This document shows positions 20,898 to 48,100 of a stretch of DNA of 61,887 nt, piece by piece. Location of the stretch: assembly GCA_043809145.1 (NCBI GenBank), contig JAZDED010000024.1, positions 1 through 61,887 of the forward strand. Reading direction: 5' to 3'. A program made the translations under genes and the position numbers. Positions within the stretch are counted from its first letter, which is position 1. Every line of letters starts with the position of its first letter. Under the pieces are notes generated by a model. That model worked only from the letters and a program-made list of their open reading frames with translations, made no database searches and was not told the origin of the DNA. This DNA comes from Candidatus Omnitrophota bacterium. GTDB taxonomy: Bacteria > Omnitrophota > Gorgyraeia > Gygaellales > Profunditerraquicolaceae.

Positions 20898-21785
20898 CTA
20901 CGGACGAGGATGGAATTGCCTATGTATACTCTTTAACCGGTCCTTATTTATATGCGTATATAACTGGGTAGTGGATATGTTTGAATGTCCGAGCATCTCC
21001 TGCACCGAACGTAAATCTGCGCCTCTCTCCAAAAGATGCGTAGCAAAAGAATGCCTAAGGATATGCGGCCGAATGGGCTTTTTAATCCCTGCTTCTTTGG
21101 CGTAACGCTTGATAAGCTTCCAGAGTGACTGACGCGATATCTTAGCGCCAAAGCGATTCAGAAAAAGAAGATCTGATACCTTTTTTTTAGCTAGATGCGG
21201 CCGGCTCAACTCAAGATATCTCTTTATGCTGGTAATAGCTTTACTGCCTAAGGGAATAATGCGCTCTTTGTTGCCCTTACCGATACACCTTAAAAATCCC
21301 ACATCCAGGTTTACGTTATCCGTCTTAAGGCCTACTAATTCTGATGCCCGCATTCCTGTAGCATAAAGAGTCTCTATCATAGCCTTATCTCTTATACCCT
21401 GTTTATCTCTTACATTAGGCTGACTGATAAGCTCTTCTACTTCGTTAAGCGATAATGTCTCGGGAATCTTCTTCCAAAGCTTCGGCGATTCAATAAGGCT
21501 GGAAGGGTCACTCTTTAAGATCCTTTCCCTGACTAAAAAACGATAAAACATCCTGATCGCAGCCAGGCGCCTGGCCACAGAATTAGAATTAATCCCTTTA
21601 TCTTTCTGAAAAAACATAAAATCAGTAATATTATTCCTGGTGGCCTTGGCAAAACTATCAACGGAATGTTTTTTTAGAAAATCGGAATACTTAACCAGGT
21701 CACCCTGATAAGAAATAATAGTATTCTTTGAAAGACCGCGCTCAACCGATAAATAATTCATAAAAGCTTCGATTAATTCAATCAT
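20898..21785 (-). CDS. xerD: Tyrosine recombinase XerD
   Basis: VERGLS.NT, LYATGMRASEL, GKGNKER, HILRHSFATH, VQEMLGH, TQLYTH, HPR. Confidence 0.92.
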   Translation of the reverse strand: MIELIEAFMNYLSVERGLSKNTIISYQGDLVKYSDFLKKHSVDSFAKATRNNITDFMFFQKDKGINSNSVARRLAAIRMFYRFLVRERILKSDPSSLIESPKLWKKIPETLSLNEVEELISQPNVRDKQGIRDKAMIETLYATGMRASELVGLKTDNVNLDVGFLRCIGKGNKERIIPLGSKAITSIKRYLELSRPHLAKKKVSDLLFLNRFGAKISRQSLWKLIKRYAKEAGIKKPIRPHILRHSFATHLLERGADLRSVQEMLGHSNISTTQLYTHINKDRLKSIHRQFHPRP

Positions 21786-25742: not shown

Positions 25743-26018
25743 TTATTCGAAACGGATTTCAAAATCTTTATATTCGCCGCTCGCCGCAAGCCACTGACTT
25801 TGCGTATCTTGAATATAACGGCTGAATTGGGTATTTATTTTTACTAAAAAACTTTTGAGGGCATCCTCTTCGGCCTCAGCTACAATTTCAACCCTGCCAT
25901 CACGCAAGTTGGCTACCCAACCACAGATACCGGTTTCGTCAGCAATTTCCCTGGCTGTATACCGAAAACCCACTCCCTGTACCTGGCCGCTAATATATAT
26001 ATGCAGCTGTTTTTTCAT
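25743..26018 (-). CDS. acyP: Acylphosphatase
   Basis: GQVQGVGFR and GWVAN..DGRVE motifs. Confidence 0.93.
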   Translation of the reverse strand: MKKQLHIYISGQVQGVGFRYTAREIADETGICGWVANLRDGRVEIVAEAEEDALKSFLVKINTQFSRYIQDTQSQWLAASGEYKDFEIRFE

Positions 26019-26087
26019 CTAAAACTTAAACATAGTAATTCCGGATAGTATACTCAAACGCCAGAAAAGAAAAACACTACGGGATAA

Positions 26088-26211
26088 ATTTAATCGGGGC
26101 GGACAGACTTGCCCGCCAAACTGCCTTGGCGGGTCCGCCACACTTTGTGGCGGAAACTTTTAAAGGACTTCTCTGTCCGCGTGCATCATTTAATCGGGGC
26201 GGACAGACTTG
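26088..26211. repeat. 24-bp direct repeat of tRNA-Pro 3' end enclosing two GC-rich REP-like hairpins
   Basis: ATTTAATCGGGGCGGACAGACTTG at 26088-26111 and 26188-26211; hairpins CCCGCCAA/TTGGCGGG (26112-26133) and TCCGCCACA/TGTGGCGGA (26134-26154). Confidence 0.85.
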
Positions 26212-26268
26212 AACTGTCGACCTCAACGTCCCGAACGTTGCGCTCTAGCCAAACTGAGCCACGCCCCG
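26194..26268 (-). tRNA. tRNA-Pro (anticodon CGG), CCA not encoded
   Basis: Cloverleaf: acceptor CGGGGCG/CGCCCCG, D arm GCTC/GAGC, anticodon arm CAACG-TTCGGGA-CGTTG, T arm GACAG-TTCAAGT-CTGTC. Confidence 0.96.
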
Positions 26269-26479
26269 TGATTTTCTATATTTTCTAATTACCAAAAAAG
26301 TCATCCCGAGCTTTTTATATAATTATTATTATAAGCAAGGGACAATATCAAACTTACCGGTCAAACACCTTACGTGTCTATTGTAATTACCAGTCAAAAA
26401 CGAAGTATATATTATTTGTTTAGTATAACAGAAAAAGGCGGGAAAAACAAGAATAGAAACTAAGGGAACAGTTCCTATC

Positions 26480-27043
26480 TTACCTTCTCTTGGCCAACAT
26501 ATCAAATTCAATATTGACCTTATGCGATGGGCCTTTGAATCCTAAGGTGGTATTCTTTAAGGTGTGCGGGATAATATAAACAGTAAAACTCGAAGATCTT
26601 TTATCGGCTATAGTCAGGCTAATGCCATCAACGGCAACCGAACCTTTAGGCAAAATGTAACACATGAACTTATTTGGTACAGCTATTTCAAACCCAAGGT
26701 TACCTTGCAGATAATTTTTCTTGCGGATAATTCCCAAGCAATCAACATGCCCGCTGACAAAGTGGCCGGATACCCTGTCTCCAACTTTTAAACTCCGCTC
26801 TAAATTTACCTTATCCCCAAATTTAAGCAAGCCCAGGTTAGTTACCTTGAGTGTCTCAGGAATAGCCTCAAAAGATAAAATCTCTTTCTTGATTATAGTA
26901 AGACACACCCCATTAACCGCAACACTATCGCCTATCTTAACATCTTCGGTTACTTTATCTGCCTTGATCTCAAGGACAGAATTATTTCCTATCCGGGAAA
27001 TCTTCCTGACTTCTCCAAGTTCTTCAATTATCCCCGAAAACAT
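26480..27043 (-). CDS. ribE: Riboflavin synthase (alpha chain)
   Basis: MFSGII N-terminus, GDSVAVNGVCLT, GHFVSGHVD, KGSVAVDGISLT. Confidence 0.96.
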   Translation of the reverse strand: MFSGIIEELGEVRKISRIGNNSVLEIKADKVTEDVKIGDSVAVNGVCLTIIKKEILSFEAIPETLKVTNLGLLKFGDKVNLERSLKVGDRVSGHFVSGHVDCLGIIRKKNYLQGNLGFEIAVPNKFMCYILPKGSVAVDGISLTIADKRSSSFTVYIIPHTLKNTTLGFKGPSHKVNIEFDMLAKRR

Positions 27044-27048
27044 AAGTG

Positions 27049-27347
27049 AGCAGATAACTTATGGAAGCAGCAAAGCTGCGACATAAGTTATAGACCTCCT
27101 CCTTTATTATTATGGCGTCTGCGAACTTATACCGCTCTTTTGGAATGAAGTAAATTTAGTAAATGTCCAAAAGGGCGGTCTTTAATTCAAGCAGATAACT
27201 TATGGAAGCAGCAAAGCTGCGACATAAGTTATAGACCTCCTCCTTTATTATTATGGCGTCTGCGAACTTATCCAGCACCTTTTAAGCATTCAGATATTAA
27301 AAGAATACTTATGAATTTAAATTATTGAGTTATTTAGAAGGTGCTGG
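27049..27347. repeat. Two identical 82-bp structured repeats, each followed by a different long hairpin
   Basis: Identical units 27049-27130 and 27190-27271; hairpins 27131-27179 and 27272-27347. Confidence 0.9.
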
Positions 27348-27348
27348 G

Positions 27349-28449
27349 TTAATTTATCGGATACCCTTCTATTAAAAAATCCTCTCCGAATCGCCTTAAT
27401 TTTATATCCCTTAACTTTATTGCCTGTTCAATGCGCGCTATGCCTTTGCCCATCACCGAGCTGGTAGCCTCTTTTCCTCCGATAATCTTGGGACTGATAA
27501 AAAACATAATCTTATCCACCAGTTTTTCGTCAAACAAAGAGCCGATAAGCGTTCCACCTCCTTCTACGAGTATAGAACTTATCTGGTCTTTAGCCAATTT
27601 TTTAAGCAAATCCTTGAGATTAATTTCTCCTGACTTCTCACTAACCTCTAAAATCCTAGCCTTTTGAGCCAGTATCCCGCGATTTTCAGTCTCTTGGCCA
27701 GGCCTCTTGGCTAAAGTAGCAATAATAACTTTACTTTTTTTATTAAATATATTTCCATCTTCAGGAGTACTCAGCTGACTATCTACCACGATCTTAATAG
27801 GATTCTTTTGGGCAAACCAGGAATCCAGCCTGGGATTATCTCTAAGAATAGTATTCACTCCCACCATAATAGCGTCATATTCACTGCGTAAACGGTGCGA
27901 ATAACCTCGCGATTTATCGGTAGTAATCCACTTGGAGTCACCGGTACGCGTAGCAATCTTGCCATCCAAAGATTGCGCGATTTTAACGGTAACAAAAGGC
28001 AATCTTTTAGTTATATTCTTTATAAATACCTCATTGAGATGGATTAATTCGCGCTCCAAAAAACCTACCTCTACCTTAATCTTCTGACTCCGGAGTATAT
28101 CCACCCCCTTACCATTATTTATGGGATTAGGGTCAAGCATACCTATAATAACTTCTTTAATACCGCTTCTGATAATCGTATCCACGCAGGGCGGAGTCCG
28201 GCCAAAATGCGCGCAAGGCTCCAAGCTCACATAAAGCCTTGAGCCTTTAGCCCTTTTACCAGCATCTTCTAAAGCCATGGCTTCGGCATGAGATGTTCCG
28301 GCTTTTTCGTGAAAACCCTTACCGATAATACGGCTGTCTTTTACTACCAAAGCTCCTACCATGGGATTAGGCATGGTCTTACCTTTGGCCTTAAGAGCCA
28401 GTTTTATACAGAGCCGCATATAAAAATTATGGTCTTTAAGTACACTCAC
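27349..28449 (-). CDS. ribD: Riboflavin biosynthesis deaminase/reductase
   Basis: PNPMVGA, HAE, LEPCAH...PPC, SLDGKIA, EGG. Confidence 0.96.
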   Translation of the reverse strand: MSVLKDHNFYMRLCIKLALKAKGKTMPNPMVGALVVKDSRIIGKGFHEKAGTSHAEAMALEDAGKRAKGSRLYVSLEPCAHFGRTPPCVDTIIRSGIKEVIIGMLDPNPINNGKGVDILRSQKIKVEVGFLERELIHLNEVFIKNITKRLPFVTVKIAQSLDGKIATRTGDSKWITTDKSRGYSHRLRSEYDAIMVGVNTILRDNPRLDSWFAQKNPIKIVVDSQLSTPEDGNIFNKKSKVIIATLAKRPGQETENRGILAQKARILEVSEKSGEINLKDLLKKLAKDQISSILVEGGGTLIGSLFDEKLVDKIMFFISPKIIGGKEATSSVMGKGIARIEQAIKLRDIKLRRFGEDFLIEGYPIN

Positions 28450-29261
28450 CTTCTAGCCTCTCTTATTTTATCCACAAATTTATAGGGAAGCCTTATGTCT
28501 CCTAATTTTACATCCGGCTTAACGCTCCCGTGAAAATCCGAACCTCCGGTAACTAAAAGTTTATTCTTATTAACGATATCCAGGTATTTACTGATCATTG
28601 CAGACGTATGCTCAGGATAATATATCTCTAACCCCATAATTCCAAAACCAATAAAATCCATAATCAGATTATTGTCACGCAATAGGTAGGGATGGGCAAG
28701 GATTGGCACGCCGCCGGCGTCTTTGATTAATTTTATAGCCTCCTGGGCGTTAAAACGAAAATTAAGCACAAAGGCCGGAGCCTTATCACCCAGATATCTA
28801 TCAAATGCCTCCCTTGTCGAACCGACCAAACCCTGAGCAACCATGGCCCGGGCAACATGGGGCCTACCTACGGTGCTGTTAAGCGCCAAATTAAAAACCT
28901 CTTCCACCGCTAAACAAATCCCCAGCCCCTTTAACTTCTCGGCTATTTTATATACGCGCTCGGCACGATTTTTTCTTAAAAATTCCAGTCTTGAAACAAA
29001 CTCCTTATTCTTATAATCAATAAAATATCCCAGGATATGTACTTCCATCTCCTTAAACTCACAACTAAGTTCTACTCCGGGAATGACTTCAATATTCTTC
29101 TGCCGGCCCAGGCTTATACAGGTTTGCAATCCGTCAACATTATCATGATCTACTACGGAGATTCCGGTAAAACCTATACGCGAGGACTCCTGAATCAATT
29201 TTTCCGGAGTATAGGTACTGTCAGAGAATGTCGTATGTAAATGTAAATCCGCAAACTTCAT
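28446..29261 (-). CDS. PHP-domain phosphoesterase (TrpH/YciV-like)
   Basis: DLHLHT..SD, DH, GVE, HILGY, GRPHVA, AHP, GGSDFHG. Confidence 0.9.
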   Translation of the reverse strand: MKFADLHLHTTFSDSTYTPEKLIQESSRIGFTGISVVDHDNVDGLQTCISLGRQKNIEVIPGVELSCEFKEMEVHILGYFIDYKNKEFVSRLEFLRKNRAERVYKIAEKLKGLGICLAVEEVFNLALNSTVGRPHVARAMVAQGLVGSTREAFDRYLGDKAPAFVLNFRFNAQEAIKLIKDAGGVPILAHPYLLRDNNLIMDFIGFGIMGLEIYYPEHTSAMISKYLDIVNKNKLLVTGGSDFHGSVKPDVKLGDIRLPYKFVDKIREARR

Positions 29262-29289
29262 CCCGCACCTTTTGTATATTTATATGGAT

Positions 29290-29709
29290 TTATTTTTTTA
29301 TATCTGATTTAATTTTATCCAAAATCCCGTTTACAAATTTTGCAGCCTGGACATCAGAATATTTCTTAGCCAACTCTACGGCTTCGTTTATGGAGACCTT
29401 AGATGGAATATCCTGGCAGTATATAATTTCGTAGGCAGCCAGGCGCATAATATTACGGTCAACCTTGGCCATTCGGTCCAGCCTCCAATTGGTGGCCAGC
29501 CCGGATATCTTCTTGTCGATTTCAGCCAAATGTCCGATTACCCCCTTAACAAGCCCTTGAGTAAAATCTTTAACTTCCAAGGCTATATCCTCATCAGGCA
29601 ATCGTTGCCAAAAAAACATTATTACCGCATCAATATCACTATCCCGGGTAATATCCAGTTGATAAAGGATCTGTAATGCAAATTCCCTGGACTTGGTCCT
29701 TTTTCTCAT
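29290..29709 (-). CDS. nusB: Transcription antitermination factor NusB
   Basis: Arg-rich N-terminus, [25 protein letters not shown]. Confidence 0.96.
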
Positions 29710-30170
29710 ATCTTATCCACTAAATTAACCATCTCGATAGCGCTCATAGCCGCGTCCTTACCCTTATTGCCGTCCTTGGTTCCGGCTCGTTCAATCGCCT
29801 GTTCAATAGTATCCGCAGTAATAATCCCGAAAATAACCGGCATTCCGGAATTTAAGCACACGCTGGCTACGCCCTTAGCCACTTCAGAAGCAATATAATC
29901 AAAATGCGGAGTAGCCCCTCTTATAACTGTACCCAGGCAAATAATAGCGTCGTACTTCTTGGTATTGGCCATCTTCTGGGCAACAACTGCAATCTCAAAG
30001 GCTCCGGGAACCTTAGCTACGGCCAAATCATTTTCACTTGCGCCGTGCCTGATTAATGTATCTAAGCAACCATTAATGAGTTCTTTGGTGATAAAATCAT
30101 TGAACCGAGAAGCGACTATCCCAAATTTCTTTCCTTTAGCAATCAACTCACCTTCTAGCATTTTAGCCAT
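29706..30170 (-). CDS. ribH: Lumazine synthase
   Basis: [34 protein letters not shown]. Confidence 0.97.
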
Positions 30171-30199: not shown

Positions 30200-31411
30200 T
30201 TAGTTTATGTTCAAATTATGGCCAAGCTTTTCTTTCTTGGTCTTTAGATAATTATAATTAAGCCGATGTGGCTCTGTCTCCAACGGCAACGCTTGAGTTA
30301 TCTTCAGCCCGTAACCCTCCAGGCCCACCACTTTCTTGGGATTATTAGTCAATAGCCGGATCTGGCGCATACCTAAATCCACCAGAATCTGCGCTCCTAT
30401 ACCGTAATTCCTTAAGTCAGGTTCATAGCCCAAAGCTGTATTTGCTTCTACAGTATCCAAACCTTTATCCTGCAAGTTATAAGCTCGGATTTTATCTACC
30501 AGCCCTATACCACGGCCTTCTTGAGCCATATACAGGATAACCCCACAACCTTCATTCTTAATAATCTGCATTGCTTTTTTAAGCTGCCTTCCGCAGTCGC
30601 AACGCAGCGACCCCAGGGCATCACCTGTAAGGCATTCTGAATGCACTCTTACTAAAACTGACTCATCTTTCAGATTCCCCATAACCAATGCAGTATGCAC
30701 CTTATTTTCTATTAGATCCCGATAAAGAATAATTCTGTAATTACCGTATTCCGTCGGGAGATCCGCCTCGCATACCCTCTCTACCATTTTTTCTAAACGC
30801 CGGCGGTATTCAATAAGGCTGGCTATAGAACAGATTTTGAGGCTATGAGTTTTAGCAAAATCCATTAACTGCGGAAATCTAGCCATACTGCCGTCATCAT
30901 TCATAATCTCGCATATGACTCCGGCAGGAAATAAACCGGCTAAACGAGCCAGATCCACTGCTGCTTCAGTATGTCCGGCGCGAACTAAAACCCCTCCCTT
31001 ACGCGCTTGCAAAGGAAATATATGACCTGGCCGAATCAAATCTTCAGGTTTAGAGTGTGGATTAATCAAAACCTCGATTGTCCTGGCCCGATCAAAGGCA
31101 GATATTCCGGTAGTAACCATGCTTGCGGCATCTACAGACACAATCCAGGCAGTAGAATAGTGATCACCGCTTCCCTTTTGCTTCATTAGTTCAAGCATAG
31201 GATGTAAATCTAATTGTTGTAACTTATTTTCTTCCATAGGCACGCAAATAAGCCCTCGGCCAAACTTAGCCATAAAATTTATATGTTCAGCATTGGCAAA
31301 GGACGCAGCCATGAGCAGATCGCCTTCGTTCTCACGATCTTGTCCATCAACCACAATTACCATTTTCCCCTTTTTTAAATCTTCTAGAATTTCAGGTATA
31401 TTATTGAGCAT
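30200..31411 (-). CDS. ribBA: DHBP synthase / GTP cyclohydrolase II
   Basis: RENEGD, TGISA.DRA, RPGHIFPL, GHTEA, RVHSECLTGD..GSLRCDC, QEGRGIG. Confidence 0.97.
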   Translation of the reverse strand: MLNNIPEILEDLKKGKMVIVVDGQDRENEGDLLMAASFANAEHINFMAKFGRGLICVPMEENKLQQLDLHPMLELMKQKGSGDHYSTAWIVSVDAASMVTTGISAFDRARTIEVLINPHSKPEDLIRPGHIFPLQARKGGVLVRAGHTEAAVDLARLAGLFPAGVICEIMNDDGSMARFPQLMDFAKTHSLKICSIASLIEYRRRLEKMVERVCEADLPTEYGNYRIILYRDLIENKVHTALVMGNLKDESVLVRVHSECLTGDALGSLRCDCGRQLKKAMQIIKNEGCGVILYMAQEGRGIGLVDKIRAYNLQDKGLDTVEANTALGYEPDLRNYGIGAQILVDLGMRQIRLLTNNPKKVVGLEGYGLKITQALPLETEPHRLNYNYLKTKKEKLGHNLNIN

Positions 31412-41938: not shown

Positions 41939-43918
41939 TTATTTCAATTTCTTGGCAATCCGACAGAAGACATCAACAATATTAGGGTCGAACTGGGTTC
42001 CCGAAGCCATCTTGATTATTTTAATTGCTTCTTCCTTGCTGAATGAATTCTTACGGTATGGCCGATGCGAAATTAACGCCTGATAGACATCGGCAATAGC
42101 GATAATGCGCGCTCCCAGCGGTATCTCTTCTGCTTTTAAGCCGTTAGGATAGCCCTTACCATCCCACCTTTCATGATGATAGAGTATGTACGGTATGATA
42201 CTATGCAGAAATTGAATAGGACGAATTATTTCCACGGCAATCTGCGGATGTTTTTTAATCTCGGCGAATTCGTTCTTGGAAAGCTTATCGGATTTCAAAA
42301 GAATCTTTTCACTAATACCGATTTTGCCCAAGTCATGCAGCATAGCCGCCTGCCTAATACGCTCAACCTCTTCGCGCGAGAGGCCCAAAGCATTGGCTAC
42401 CTCCGTAGCGTAACCTACGGTTCTCTCCACATGCTCTCCGGTATAATGATCTTTCAATTCAATGGTCTTGGCAAAGGCAAAAACCGCCTCAATAAGGCTT
42501 TGATTTGAACGCCTGGTCAATTTTTCTATCTTTTCTTCCAGGATGCTTATATCCTCTACGCTTTTAGCCTTCTTGGTCGAAAGCGATTCCTGAATCTTGA
42601 TATCCATCGAAGAATAAACTTTATTTCCTCCGTATTCCTTTACCTTGCTCAAGATAGAGTCTGCAGAACTAATTAACTCCATCCCAGAAAATATCTTATC
42701 TTCCGGGTAGGAAGATACGGCCATAGAGAGCTTTAGCTTAATCACATGCTGCTTATTTCCGAAATTGTCTAGGTTTAAAGCATCCAATAATCTTTCGCCC
42801 AGATTCACTGCCATAGCCCTATCTGAACCCGGAGAAATAATCACAAATTCTTCCCCGCCCATACGAATAGCAATGTCATATTTACGCACCATTTTCCTCA
42901 ACTGCTGCGCAAGCTGTTTTAGGGTCAGGTCGCCGAATTGATGCCCGTATACGTCATTTACAGATTTAAAGTAATCAATATCCATCATCAGCGCTGAAAT
43001 AGGATGGCCGTAGCGACGGGCGCGATAAAACTCAGCCTCAATAATCTCTTGTAAATATCGATAATTATAAAGCCCGGTATGCGCATCGCATAACGCCAGC
43101 TTCTTCAGGCGCTTATTACTCTTTAATAAATCTTGGTTCAGCCTTTCAATCTTTTCCTGGTCGTGCCTGCGCTCGGAGATATCCCTGACAACAACTAAAT
43201 TGGCGCGTTTTCCTTTATAGACAATCAAACGCGCGCTCAGTTCAACAAAAATATCCTTATTCGACTTGTGACGAATAACAGTAGAATAAATTGCTTCTGT
43301 TCCAGATCCGTTCATACGTTTACGGTAATGCTCATTTATCTTTTTAGCCTCTGACGCACTAAAAATCCTGTTAAAAGACGCCTCAAGCAATTCCCGCTGA
43401 GCATAACCGCATAACTCCGACATCCGAGGATTCAGGTATTTTATCAGCCCATCGCTGACTATTAAAATACCATCATTAGCCCCTTCTACTGTCTGACGAT
43501 ACTTCTCTTCGCTCTCCCGTAAAGCCTTGTCAGAATCCTGGCACCTGGTAATATTTTCATAGATAGCCACAATTCTCTTCTCGCTCAACTTATCACCGAT
43601 AATCGAGGCCGTGACCCGGCAGAGTATATCTTGCCCATCTTTATGGCGGCAATAATACTCTTTGGAATAGTTGTTCTGATTCTCCAATACACGGTAAAAA
43701 TCAATACCAATATCATGAAATTCTTGTTTGCTGCGATAAAGAATCCGGGTACTCTTGCCTACTAATTCCTCAGGCTTATACCCAAAAACATTCTCTACGC
43801 CGCTGTTGGCATAGGTAATATTACGTTCATGTAGGACTAATACCGCGCAGGAAAAGGCATTTAAAGCGGAGAGCTCCACAAACCTGGTATGTTTATTCGT
43901 ATATTTCTTTTCTCTCAT
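41939..43918 (-). CDS. PAS-PAS-GGDEF-HD-GYP c-di-GMP enzyme
   Basis: Two PAS/PAC domains, GGEEF with RxxD I-site (RKYD), LHDLGK and HHERWDGKGYP. Confidence 0.92.
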   Translation of the reverse strand: MREKKYTNKHTRFVELSALNAFSCAVLVLHERNITYANSGVENVFGYKPEELVGKSTRILYRSKQEFHDIGIDFYRVLENQNNYSKEYYCRHKDGQDILCRVTASIIGDKLSEKRIVAIYENITRCQDSDKALRESEEKYRQTVEGANDGILIVSDGLIKYLNPRMSELCGYAQRELLEASFNRIFSASEAKKINEHYRKRMNGSGTEAIYSTVIRHKSNKDIFVELSARLIVYKGKRANLVVVRDISERRHDQEKIERLNQDLLKSNKRLKKLALCDAHTGLYNYRYLQEIIEAEFYRARRYGHPISALMMDIDYFKSVNDVYGHQFGDLTLKQLAQQLRKMVRKYDIAIRMGGEEFVIISPGSDRAMAVNLGERLLDALNLDNFGNKQHVIKLKLSMAVSSYPEDKIFSGMELISSADSILSKVKEYGGNKVYSSMDIKIQESLSTKKAKSVEDISILEEKIEKLTRRSNQSLIEAVFAFAKTIELKDHYTGEHVERTVGYATEVANALGLSREEVERIRQAAMLHDLGKIGISEKILLKSDKLSKNEFAEIKKHPQIAVEIIRPIQFLHSIIPYILYHHERWDGKGYPNGLKAEEIPLGARIIAIADVYQALISHRPYRKNSFSKEEAIKIIKMASGTQFDPNIVDVFCRIAKKLK

Positions 43919-45193: not shown

Positions 45194-48100
45194 TTATTGT
45201 TTCTCTTTTCTTTCTGTGGCGATCTTTTCTGCTAATTCCTTAGGAACCTGAGAATACTTTTTAAATTCCATGGAAGCGCTTGCCCTGCCGCTGCTTAAGG
45301 AGCGAACATTAGTAGTATAGCCAAACATCTCTGAAAGCGGAACCTCGGCAGAAATAACCTTCTGCCCTGACTTAGTCTCCATATTTAAGATTTTACCCCG
45401 GCGTGAACATATATAACCGACAATACTGTTTAATGATTCCTCCGGGGTAGTCACCTCTAAGGCCATGTAAGGCTCAAGCAATACCGGCTCGGCTTTCAGA
45501 AAAGCTTCCTTAAAACCCATGCTAGCAGCAATCTTAAATGCAAGTTCCGAAGAATCAACATCATGAAAAGAACCATCTACCAGGCTTACGCTTACATCCA
45601 CAATTGGATAACCGGCATATGCCCCTTTTTGCATGGCTTCCACTATACCTTTTTCTACCGAGGGTATAAATGATTGCGGTATGGCTCCGCCTTTAATGCT
45701 ATTTATAAATTCAAAACCTTTGCCGGGATTAGAGGATATTTCCAGTACAACATGCCCGTACTGGCCGCGCCCTCCAGTCTGACGCACATACTTGCTCTCG
45801 GCAGAACTAGATTTGAGAATCGTCTCGCGAAAAGCAACCTTAGGCTGTCCGATAACCGCCTCTACTCCAAACTCTTCTTTAAGCCTATCTACTATTATCT
45901 CCAAATGCAATTCCCCCATACCCATAAGAATAGTCTCCTTGGTTTCTTCATCACTCTGCACCAAGAATGTGGGATCCTCTTCGGTTAACTTCGCCAACCC
46001 CTTGGCCATTTTATCCTGTTCTTTGCGGCTCTTGGGGGCAATACTTAAAGAAACTACAGGTATTGGAAATTTAATTGACTCCAATAAGATATGGTTATCC
46101 AGGTCACAGAGAGTATCACCGGTTATTGTATTGGTAAGCCCGATTAATCCCACGATATCTCCAGCAAAGGCATTTTCAATATTCTCCTTCTGGTTAGCAT
46201 GCATCATCACAATCCTGCCAATGCGCTCTCTTTTATTCCGAGTGGAATTAAAAACATAAGAACCGGTACGCAAAACCCCGGAATATACCCGGGTATAAAC
46301 CAACTTACCCATATGTGGATCAGCCTGAATCTTAAAAGCTAAAGCAACCAAAGGTTCTGATGATTCCGGACGGCGCAAAATAACTTTTTCCGAATCCTGA
46401 GGATCATATCCGCGCACAGCGGTTATCTCTAAAGGAGAAGGTAGATAATCAATAACAGCGTCTAAAAGCTTCTGCACTCCCTTGTTCTTAAAAGAAGACC
46501 CGCAGACAACCGGGACTGCCTTATTGGAAACGGTCCCTTTACGTATTGCCGGAATAAGATCCTCTTTGGTTATTGATTCTTCCGATTCCAGGAATTTTTT
46601 AGTCAAATTGTCATCAAAGACAGCCGCCTTCTCAATCATGATATGGCGGTATTCTTGAGCTTTCTCCAGTAAATCCTGCGGAATATCCTCGATAATAAAT
46701 TCCTTGCCCTGGGATTCTTCCTGGTAAATACAAGCTTTCATCTCTACAAGATCAATGATGCCGCGGAATTGACTCTCTGCGCCTAAGGGAATTTCTAGCG
46801 GTATACAATTAGCGCTTAATCTTTCTTCCATCGCCTTAAGCACGCCGTAAAAATCCGCGCCGGCGCGGTCCATTTTATTAATAAAGGCGACTTTAGGCAC
46901 ATGATATTTATCCGACTGACGCCAGACGGTTTCAGATTGCGGCTCAACCCCTCCTACGGCGCAAAATACAGCAATAACCCCATCAAGTACCCTTAAGGAT
47001 CGCTCGACTTCAACGGTAAAATCTACGTGTCCCGGAGTATCGATAATATTAATACGATAGTCTCGCCAATAGCATGTCGTCGCAGCAGAAGTAATGGTAA
47101 TCCCACGTTCCTGTTCCTGTTTCATCCAATCCATTTGCGCCTTACCGTCATGTACCTCTCCTATTTTATAGGAACGCCCTGTATAAAATAATATTCTTTC
47201 AGTTGTAGTAGTCTTTCCGGCATCAATATGTGCAATAATCCCGATATTCCTGACCTTTCCCAACTCAATGCGAGCAACGGGAATGGCTTCTTTTTTAGTA
47301 ACCGGGTGCTTTTTTTCTTTGGGCGTGTTTTTTGTAGTTTTAGTTTCAGAAGATAATTTATCCTTCTCGCCTTGCTCATCTTTTATTTGCGGCTGGCTAA
47401 CAACCTCAGGTATTATTTCCTTATCTTCAATTACTGGTGCGGAAACTGGCTCTGCTACGGAAACCAAATCTGCAGATAGCGGCTCTGCGGGCGATTGCTC
47501 AACAGGTGCTTGTTCTATTTTTAGCTGCTCAAGCGGTTTTTCTACCTCTTGCGCAAGCACCAGATCATCTTTTACAGTTAAATCCTTGGCACTACCAGCT
47601 TCCTTAGTTTTATTCTTTGTTTTTGCTAATTCCTCTAATAATGACCTTAATTTATCTTCCTTAGACTCCAGATCCTTCTCTAGAATAGTATACTCCTCAT
47701 TTAACTGATTGAATTCTTTTTTAAGTTGTACATGCGCGTCTTTGGCTACCCAATCGCTCTTCTCCTGCTTCCTGTTTATCTCAACTATCTCACCTTTGAG
47801 CGCCTGAAGGTCTGTATTTTTTTGCTGCAGGGCCTTGGCATGGCCTTCAAGCTGGTGCTTCAGGCTTTCAATCTCATCTGCCTTCTTCCTATTCTCCTCT
47901 TCTAATTTCTGGCAGGCCTCTTTGGACTCTCGGAACTCTTTATTGGAATTAACATTTTTAGAAAACTCCTCCTCCAACTCTTTCTCTTTAAGGATTAACT
48001 TCTGTTCTAACCCCTTCTTATCCAAGCCTGAACTCTTTAGTATCCCTTCATTATTTTTAATCCACTCATCCCGCTTAGCAAGCTGTTCCTTTAAAATATC

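Follow-up and report, generated by a model that had tools for sequence, protein, structure and literature searches.

The window analysed here, a 61,887-nt stretch of DNA from a Candidatus Omnitrophota bacterium (contig JAZDED010000024.1 of assembly GCA_043809145.1), carries the riboflavin genes ribD and ribE on its minus strand, and the 305-nt gap between them is filled by two copies of a self-folding repeat, which we call element E, and by two hairpins. Read along the operon strand, the ribD stop codon is followed by hairpin B (27348-27272), a first 82-nt repeat (27271-27190), a 10-nt junction, hairpin A (27179-27131), a second 82-nt repeat (27130-27049), five bases and the ribE ATG. These features are listed below, where P1 and P3 are stems of E and SD stands for Shine-Dalgarno sequence, ORF for open reading frame and MFE for minimum free energy.

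27349..28449, minus strand: ribD (deaminase plus reductase; Pfam RibD_C 5.6e-51, dCMP_cyt_deam_1 1.5e-19), with its TAA stop directly before hairpin B
27272..27348, minus strand: hairpin B, type H1, with a 14-bp stem and a 48-nt A/T-rich loop, adjoining the 5' end of E copy 1
27190..27271, minus strand: E copy 1, distal to ribE, an 82-mer made of the P1 5' strand, an A/T-rich insert with AAAGGAGGAGG and the P3 hairpin
27180..27189, minus strand: junction TGAATTAAAG (operon strand), pairable with AGUUC in the 5' part of either copy in the whole-gap MFE fold
27131..27179, minus strand: hairpin A, with a 14-bp stem of the CCGCYCTTTTGG / CCAAAAGRGCGG type and a 21-nt loop
27039..27132, minus strand: E copy 2, proximal to ribE and complete, from sequence and predicted fold
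27095..27105, minus strand: SD-like AAAGGAGGAGG in E copy 2, read from the sequence; its other copy lies at 27236-27246
27028..27084, minus strand: possible 18-codon upstream ORF (MSQLCCFHKLSAHLCFRG), read from the sequence and putatively translated
26480..27043, minus strand: ribE (riboflavin synthase; Pfam Lum_binding 1.1e-47); in its AUG, the A and the U are base-paired as part of copy 2's outer P1

The two 82-mers (27049-27130 and 27190-27271) are 100% identical over 82 nt and recur with a period of 141 nt. A 42-nt core of the repeat matches the window twice with at most 3 mismatches, and none of 100 dinucleotide shuffles gave a match. Each 82-mer folds on itself, with GCAGA/TCTGC around ATAACTTATG/CATAAGTTAT and, inside that, GCAGC-AAA-GCTGC; the 94-nt element has a folding z-score of -2.5 on the operon strand and -4.3 on the plus strand. 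Hairpins A and B differ in sequence, and the 14-bp stem of each contains one mismatch, which is T-G (G-U in RNA) on the plus strand and C-A on the minus strand. All of this agrees with the original prediction, made from the letters of the window, which had described identical self-folding 82-mers and two differing spacers that, on the plus strand, each begin directly after the repeat with a 14-bp stem whose mismatch is a G-U pair on that strand only. The same prediction had reckoned with an assembly duplication, and sequencing reads speak against one. Contigs from the runs of two studies (X1 and X4) contain the 82-nt repeat piece at depths of 8.3 and 7.0, against 5.3-5.8 in the flanks, together with a 119-nt piece (27101-27219) that reads repeat-hairpin A-repeat. 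The two-copy repeat is real and not an assembly artefact. Its unit number also varies. In a run from a third study (X3), a 1153-nt contig joins 27048 to 27190, skipping 141 nt and showing no other difference; this one-unit allele reads hairpin B-E-ribE, whereas X1 and X4 hold the two-unit form.

The complete copy 2 gives the fullest view of E at this locus. Its outer P1 pairs AUAAGU with ACUUAU (27125-27130 with 27042-27047) and is followed by a UC x UC loop and an inner P1, GCAGA/UCUGC; beyond this lie a 28-nt insert, a 9-bp P3, a U/C-rich internal loop with UC on the 5' side and UUC on the 3' side, and a tip, GCAGC-UUU-GCUGC. On the 3' side of copy 1, a variant closing strand, the junction at 27180-27189, replaces the canonical one, and degenerate internal junctions likewise occur in a tandem array of another Omnitrophota genome (G203). 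Across the family, E is an imperfect palindrome of about 55-110 nt, and the full unit is a partner hairpin followed by E. On the strand of the rib genes, it opens with GG and a 5-6-bp A/U outer stem, and continues with a conserved 2x2 UC/UC loop and a 5-bp G/C-rich inner stem. Beyond these, an insert or hairpin may follow; next comes a 9-bp stem whose UUA/UAA core is invariant, then another UC/UC loop and a short variable tip. The loops are 88-96% conserved, and the consensus ends are 5' GGAUWAAUUCG ... CUCAUUWAA 3'.

BLAST of the window's genome returned no copies besides the two 82-mers of the window, but the first 50 nt of the gap have matches at numerous sites in 56 of 61 related genomes (E value ≤ 1). 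A covariance model, as the original prediction had advised building, was made from an alignment of 13 insert-free copies (model R1); the copies were chosen for four complementary inner-stem bases, which biases those four pairs only. Of the alignment cells, 92.5% are paired, and 15 of the 23 pairs show changes on both sides; none of 500 shuffles matched the observed values. R1 corrects the count in the window's genome to 11 matches (E value ≤ 1), nine of which lie on other contigs and are diverged. The window copies themselves score 24.9 bits (E value 0.0017; copy 2) and 22.3 bits, weakly because their 28-nt insert has no counterpart in R1; the model undercounts insert-bearing copies everywhere. 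At an E value ≤ 0.01, there are 59 matches in the complete 2.0-Mb genome G203, 15 in G199 and 6 in G043. At an E value ≤ 0.001, 100 of 151 sampled Omnitrophota genomes, each at least 85% complete, contain a match, as do none of five genomes from other phyla (a small control, reached via ribE loci). One locus (L021) holds a natural copy in which Watson-Crick pairs replace the inner loop. Two weak R1 matches lie elsewhere in the window, at 46748-46775 (minus strand; 15.7 bits, E value 0.38) and 43284-43342 (plus strand; 12.2 bits, E value 2.9). Both keep only the outer stem and the UC loops around a short interior, and they may be decayed or minimal copies, or chance.

No match to a known family emerged. 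A search of window positions 26000-29500 against Rfam 15 (E value ≤ 10) returned a transfer RNA (tRNA) and chance-level matches only (among them Acido-Lenti-1, which scores 15.5 bits where the gathering score is 37), and a search of 12 E-rich loci (E value ≤ 0.1) returned ribosomal RNA (rRNA), a tRNA and chance microRNA matches, none of them for E. A literature search on Omnitrophota intergenic repeats, RNA motifs and palindromic, MITE (miniature inverted-repeat transposable element) or repetitive extragenic palindromic (REP) elements found no description of E. In an Omnitrophota genomics paper, according to excerpts of its text, RNA motifs were annotated with Rfam (PMC10066038). E is a covarying structured repeat family that is spread Omnitrophota-wide and is new to Rfam and to the literature searched. 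The original prediction had named a dispersed, known REP or MITE element with unrelated flanks as the finding that would undo it; E is indeed dispersed, so that in substance this is what was found, but the family is not a known one.

We also examined the hairpins that accompany E. Hairpin B is of a type, CCCAGCAC...GTGCTGGG, that recurs before the E copy at hisH in the window's genome (C10:18410-18457) and precedes many E copies, with compensatory differences, in G203, a genome of another order. Hairpin A is found again, nearly letter for letter, in a genome of the same family and another genus (L017), where it lies between two head-to-head E copies and is flipped relative to one of them. As a rule, E comes after such a hairpin: an uninterrupted stem of at least 7 bp ending no more than 4 nt from the first base of E was present at 80 of 134 copies, against 26 of 134 controls placed 230 nt upstream, and stems of at least 10 bp adjoin 26 copies and no control (134 each). 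E occurs alone, in head-to-head pairs around one hairpin (eight in G203, five in G199 and one in G043, by reading coordinates) and in tandem arrays; G203, for example, has an array of three units repeating every 81 nt, and L137 one of two identical units repeating every 135 nt. In G000 (C34:3057-3447), two facing E copies lie 241 nt apart between two minus-strand genes, of which we take one to be clpP-like by its C-terminal residues and the other, guessing from size and position, to be possibly clpX-like; one copy overlaps the upstream gene's stop on the other strand, and the other, which has an SD, is placed 12 nt ahead of the next gene's start.

The mini-array of the window is therefore a recurrent arrangement: a dispersed element stands in tandem here, and the locus itself is not special. 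The view of a conserved scaffold with variable cargo holds insofar as the pattern recurs elsewhere as tandem arrays; the "variable" hairpins, however, are recurring partner modules that form families, not free cargo. A further possibility is an integron-like (attC) or clustered regularly interspaced short palindromic repeat (CRISPR)-like cassette array, in which a dedicated recombinase would capture units. Identical repeats do alternate with unlike spacers, one- and two-unit alleles exist, and E, as a bulged hairpin with conserved unpaired bases, presumably resembles attC sites. Yet a genome has single copies scattered over dozens of loci, the units contain no ORFs, and the E consensus lacks the cores RYYYAAC and GTTRRRY that we take to define attC. 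An 82-nt repeat with palindromic, hairpin-forming "spacers" is likewise unlike CRISPR, whose repeats measure 23-55 nt. No cas gene or integron-type integrase lies within 10 kb, in line with the original prediction, which saw none nearby, and no Cas domain was found among 27 neighbouring proteins (15.3-40.4 kb). A single recombinase is encoded within those 10 kb, a protein of 295 aa that carries Phage_integrase and SAM_1 domains (20901-21785, minus strand) and lies 5 kb from the gap; we presume it to be a XerC/D-like tyrosine recombinase, and nothing links it to the repeat. We consider a cassette system extremely unlikely.

The lead option of the original prediction was a plus-strand small-RNA (sRNA) array that is antisense to the rib operon and joins a conserved scaffold to variable structured cargo. 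The plus strand of the window folds better, both by the z-scores above and over the whole gap (-103.1 vs -97.9 kcal/mol), but it does so because of a property of the entire family: in all contexts, the antisense strand of E has the more stable fold, by a mean of 3.7 kcal/mol and in 120 of 135 copies, because the UC/UC loops become tandem G-A (GA/GA) there. That both hairpin mismatches are G-U on the plus strand is likewise neutral, since the hairpin type is flipped relative to its E in L017 and since the stems of 137 copies contain 73 G-U against 52 A-C pairs, beside 2705 Watson-Crick pairs. A terminator-like hairpin does follow one copy in the genome (C34:26043-26130). In the gap itself, a scan found no plus-strand promoter-like site, and its sole plus-strand terminator-like match lies inside hairpin A; family members occur in both orientations relative to genes. 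A look-up of sequencing runs listed no RNA run that contains the region. An sRNA array is thus very unlikely to explain the repeat.

The pair counts are informative in their own right. Split by context, G-U and A-C pairs number 26 and 20 on the start side (sense) and 12 and 16 on the stop side, a difference whose direction fits an RNA constraint but which is small. Overall, G-U and A-C are near parity, and the counts show no clear strand asymmetry. Stems that are near-pure Watson-Crick on either strand, together with conserved mismatches, would be expected of a hairpin that is maintained as DNA, such as REP elements or the ends of IS200-type insertion sequences.

Sites orthologous to the window's gap mostly lack the element. 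In 18 of the 20 closest ribE loci (L023-L042), ribD and ribE overlap, directly adjoin or are separated by at most about 3 nt; the original prediction had suggested comparing such orthologous gaps for gain or loss of units. L025 has an unrelated, E-free hairpin in its ribD-ribE gap, and L033 has a hairpin plus E whose stems carry compensatory changes and which ends directly on the ribE ATG. By R1, 1 of 26 other ribE loci has E in front of the gene and 0 of 30 leuA loci do, although four genomes outside that leuA sample do have E at leuA. These two counts overturned our earlier impression, gained from BLAST-selected loci, that E is conserved at orthologous genes.

Some copies carry marks of insertion. 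Direct repeats of 13-33 nt begin exactly at the 3' end of E and copy the end of the upstream gene; they measure 33 nt in L179, 21-24 nt in L007, L013 and L137 (ilvC) and 27 nt in the array of L150. In L014 (24 nt) and L144 (13 nt), the repeated stretch runs from the T-loop of an apparent tRNA to its 3' end, with the same T-loop start in both as judged by eye, and lies right after the downstream E unit (L014:1390-1580, L144:1715-1880). When a window 350 nt further upstream served as control, a repeat of at least 12 nt was present at 1 of 135 copies, two array cases apart. The ilvC end (M(M)PWMKK plus stop) is directly repeated after a hairpin-E unit between ilvC and leuA (L007:60-240, L013:1400-1575 and L137, reverse strand, ~1440-1800), and in L137 the whole unit occurs twice and the ilvC end three times. 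A supposed leader peptide, M(M)PWMKK, before leuA is this duplicated IlvC C-terminus beside E and was dropped. In L013, the functional ilvC end and its relic have diverged, so we take that insertion to be old.

To describe where E lies relative to genes, we applied a simple, crude ORF rule to 137 distinct copies, drawn from about 60 genomes. First, in 33 of 137 copies, E runs at its 3' end into an SD and a start codon that opens a long ORF. Second, in 33 of 137, plus two that were moved there by eye from nine dual-class copies, the last bases of E overlap a stop codon that closes a long ORF on the other strand. Third, an ATG follows within a few bases, with no SD, in 11 of 137, a count that is not above background. 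The mirrored 5' end of E gave 1 SD and 1 stop, and a control at +150 nt gave 3 SD, 7 direct ATG and 4-6 stops. For 47 of the 137 copies, the classifier saw no gene boundary, though in five of these the 3' end of E adjoins the 3' end of an apparent tRNA on the other strand (T-arm-like letters, by eye). From their N-termini, we take genes downstream of E to include groES, dapA, ilvC, aroC, clpC, glgA, hisH, folC, rplK and ribE; some of the direct-ATG copies presumably precede hisH, leuA, folC, rplK and ribE (ribE twice). E occurs in both orientations, with its 3' end at the gene boundary and its 5' end at the partner hairpin. In G203 (L165:1-1337 and 1801-1866), a near-perfect palindromic E lies about 465 nt upstream of the 16S rRNA gene, with a promoter-like pair, TTGACA...TATAAC, just downstream of it by eye; this copy need not be part of the downstream transcript.

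Such placement raises the alternative that E is primarily a cis-acting RNA module at cistron boundaries, with spread and duplications as secondary events; we give this some credence, well short of regarding it as probable. As a 5' leader, E would expose or hide the SD and AUG or shield the 5' end of the mRNA, and in the opposite orientation its stabler 3' hairpin would protect or end the upstream transcript. The fixed-register SD and start after E (33 of 137, against 1 at the mirrored end and 3-6 in the offset controls) point this way, as do the strong covariation and the loop conservation. So do the starts that lie 0-4 nt from the stem with no SD, at genes that we recognised by N-termini (hisH, leuA, folC, rplK and, twice, ribE; by Pfam for the window's ribE only). 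On the other strand, stops and apparent tRNA 3' ends lie within or beside the outer stem, where the stabler antisense fold would suit a 3'-end role. An RNA module sits less well with G-U pairs barely exceeding A-C pairs and with the small difference between start and stop sides, with the copies that lie at no gene boundary, one of them upstream of the apparent rRNA promoter, and with the absence of E from most orthologous leuA and ribE sites. The flanking direct repeats and the unit-number polymorphism suggest insertion dynamics instead. Nor does E behave like a riboswitch, which would show one orientation, a coherent gene set and retention at orthologues; none of the three was found.

On balance, we lean with guarded confidence toward E as a non-autonomous, insertion-prone intergenic repeat that acts at the DNA level, is co-transcribed and has been locally co-opted, in the manner of REP elements and their mosaics, enterobacterial repetitive intergenic consensus (ERIC) elements or MITEs. 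We favor this reading because G-U and A-C pairs are near parity, orthologous sites are occupied patchily, direct repeats flank some copies and a one-unit allele exists. We infer that E moves as DNA and is co-transcribed: it would insert or duplicate in the tiny spacers at gene ends and would then be transcribed with its neighbours.

Several points weigh against this DNA-level interpretation. The flanking repeats have no uniform length, as a classical target-site duplication would, and they are clear in only about 7 of 134 copies, three of which are arrays. Copies in the same genome are strongly diverged with compensatory changes, for which long residence fits better than recent bursts of copying. 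The phylum-wide UC/UC loops, the UUA/UAA core and the fixed SD register could reflect RNA function. Background is high for the looser "start" class (45 of 137 at +150), which leaves only the stringent placement figures usable. Finally, no mobilising enzyme was found, the Y1 transposase being the one candidate examined.

Y1 transposase domains (PF01797) occur in 122 of the 151 Omnitrophota genomes (E value ≤ 1e-5). They are unusually widespread for small genomes, with 1-10 matches each, many of them in open frames of 160-350 aa. The window's own genome, which is 66% complete, gave no match. E (E value ≤ 0.1) was found within 1.5 kb of Y1_Tnp at 0 of 8 loci, with a single 15.5-bit match (E value 0.17) disregarded. 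The two do not co-occur tightly across genomes: G197 has 18 E copies and no Y1, and G078 and G163 have 6-7 Y1 and no E. A link to REP-associated tyrosine transposases (RAYTs) is unsupported by Y1 proximity (0 of 8) and by co-occurrence across the 151 genomes.

A bolder version, which we think doubtful, is that E units form a new class of non-autonomous mobile elements that target gene 3' ends by means of an enzyme other than a RAYT. One boundary would then fall within the final 13-33 nt of a protein gene or within a tRNA T-loop, and insertion would duplicate that stretch; the SD and the stop codons that some copies bring along would keep tightly packed neighbours expressed. Copying via an RNA intermediate would also be in keeping with duplications of variable length and with units that are intact in their 3' part and variable in their 5' part.

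Under the less specific reading, that of an insertion-prone repeat co-opted where it lands, the insertion would have separated ribD from ribE, removing the close junction that is seen in relatives. Between E and the ribE ATG there is no SD, and the internal AAAGGAGGAGG is the only SD upstream of ribE. Since the E copy carries this SD in its insert, ribE should still be translatable. The internal SD sits where relatives carry the optional hairpin, whereas 33 of 137 relatives' copies have an SD just after E. It precedes the ribE AUG by 50 nt along the sequence; the predicted fold puts it in an open loop about 13 base-pair steps from the AUG, which is itself at the foot of the outer stem. The upstream ORF starts at an ATG (27084) 9-10 nt after the SD, runs for 18 codons and ends 13 nt inside ribE, and E copy 1 duplicates the SD together with a 12-codon version of the ORF. 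We suggest two possible routes to ribE: the folded E may bring the SD close to the AUG, or ribosomes may start at the upstream ATG, read the 18-codon ORF and restart at ribE. Relatives have ACG, ATA or other triplets in place of the upstream ATG, so a conserved peptide was rejected and the ORF is a local feature. A promoter reading of the hairpin arms (TAAAAT and TTGACA boxes) was not used, as the spacing, by eye, is inconsistent between copies. Around the gap, the minus-strand gene order is ribBA (30203-31411), ribH (29706-30170), nusB (29290-29709), a PHP-domain gene (28446-29261), ribD, the gap and ribE. The Rfam search of 26000-29500 reported no flavin mononucleotide riboswitch there, the ribBA leader being outside the searched part.

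Omnitrophota are uncultured bacteria with small genomes, and their gene-expression signals are almost unknown. An element that lies at dozens of gene boundaries per genome offers a handle for intergenic annotation and, through unit gain and loss, for strain typing. Knowing E also avoids mis-called short ORFs and "leader peptides", as the ilvC end illustrates, and lets one ask how streamlined genomes tolerate or use insertions that part genes whose translation is normally coupled. Should the gene-end duplications beside E reflect its insertion mechanism, E would also hint at an undescribed way of moving DNA in bacteria.

We lastly compared E with known systems. Of the three options that the original prediction had offered, a composite like REP elements and bacterial interspersed mosaic elements (BIMEs) is the closest, and the sRNA array and the cassette system are unsupported. 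Like REP, BIME and REPIN sequences as described in abstracts and in passages of one paper, E comprises extragenic imperfect palindromes in many copies, occurring singly, as inverted pairs around a spacer and as mosaics (PMC3184786); it shares with them a position at gene ends, presumed co-transcription and near-pure Watson-Crick stems with conserved mismatches (same sources). REP sequences are 20-40 nt long and GC-rich with a terminal GTAG/CGTC tag, according to the abstract of a second source (PMC3733652), whereas E is 55-110 nt long with A/U-rich ends. E has no terminal GTAG, and CGTC and CTAC flank only the optional inner hairpin of some copies. E is also conserved across a phylum, whereas a REP family is conserved within a species group. 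In its mosaic organisation, E is BIME-like: repeats and other motifs are combined, alternate or stand in tandem, and are extragenic.

ERIC sequences and Correia- or RUP-type MITEs, as portrayed in passages of the first paper, resemble E in being intergenic imperfect palindromes of about 100 nt that lie in either orientation, have variants with internal inserts and cross genera, and, as presumed for E, in being co-transcribed, with orientation-dependent effects on mRNA (PMC3184786). E differs from them in having no TA or other fixed target duplication and in being coupled to a separate partner hairpin. MITEs have terminal inverted repeats and a fixed target-site duplication; E is one long inverted repeat, with flanking direct repeats of variable length (13-33 nt) at about 7 of 134 copies. 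No related full-length insertion sequence was identified for E, in a search that was not exhaustive. The end of E supplies stops or a fixed SD register far more regularly than is known for ERIC.

Two further systems share single traits with E. The BOX elements of Streptococcus pneumoniae are modular intergenic repeats with a variable number of internal units and a predicted RNA fold, in which they resemble E; we take their modules to be unrelated to it in sequence and architecture. In phage T4 gene 38, a structured 5' leader brings a distant SD near the start codon, and the predicted fold suggests a similar arrangement for the window copy only. E combines features of REP/BIME, ERIC and MITE elements, and the membership tests run assign it to none of them.

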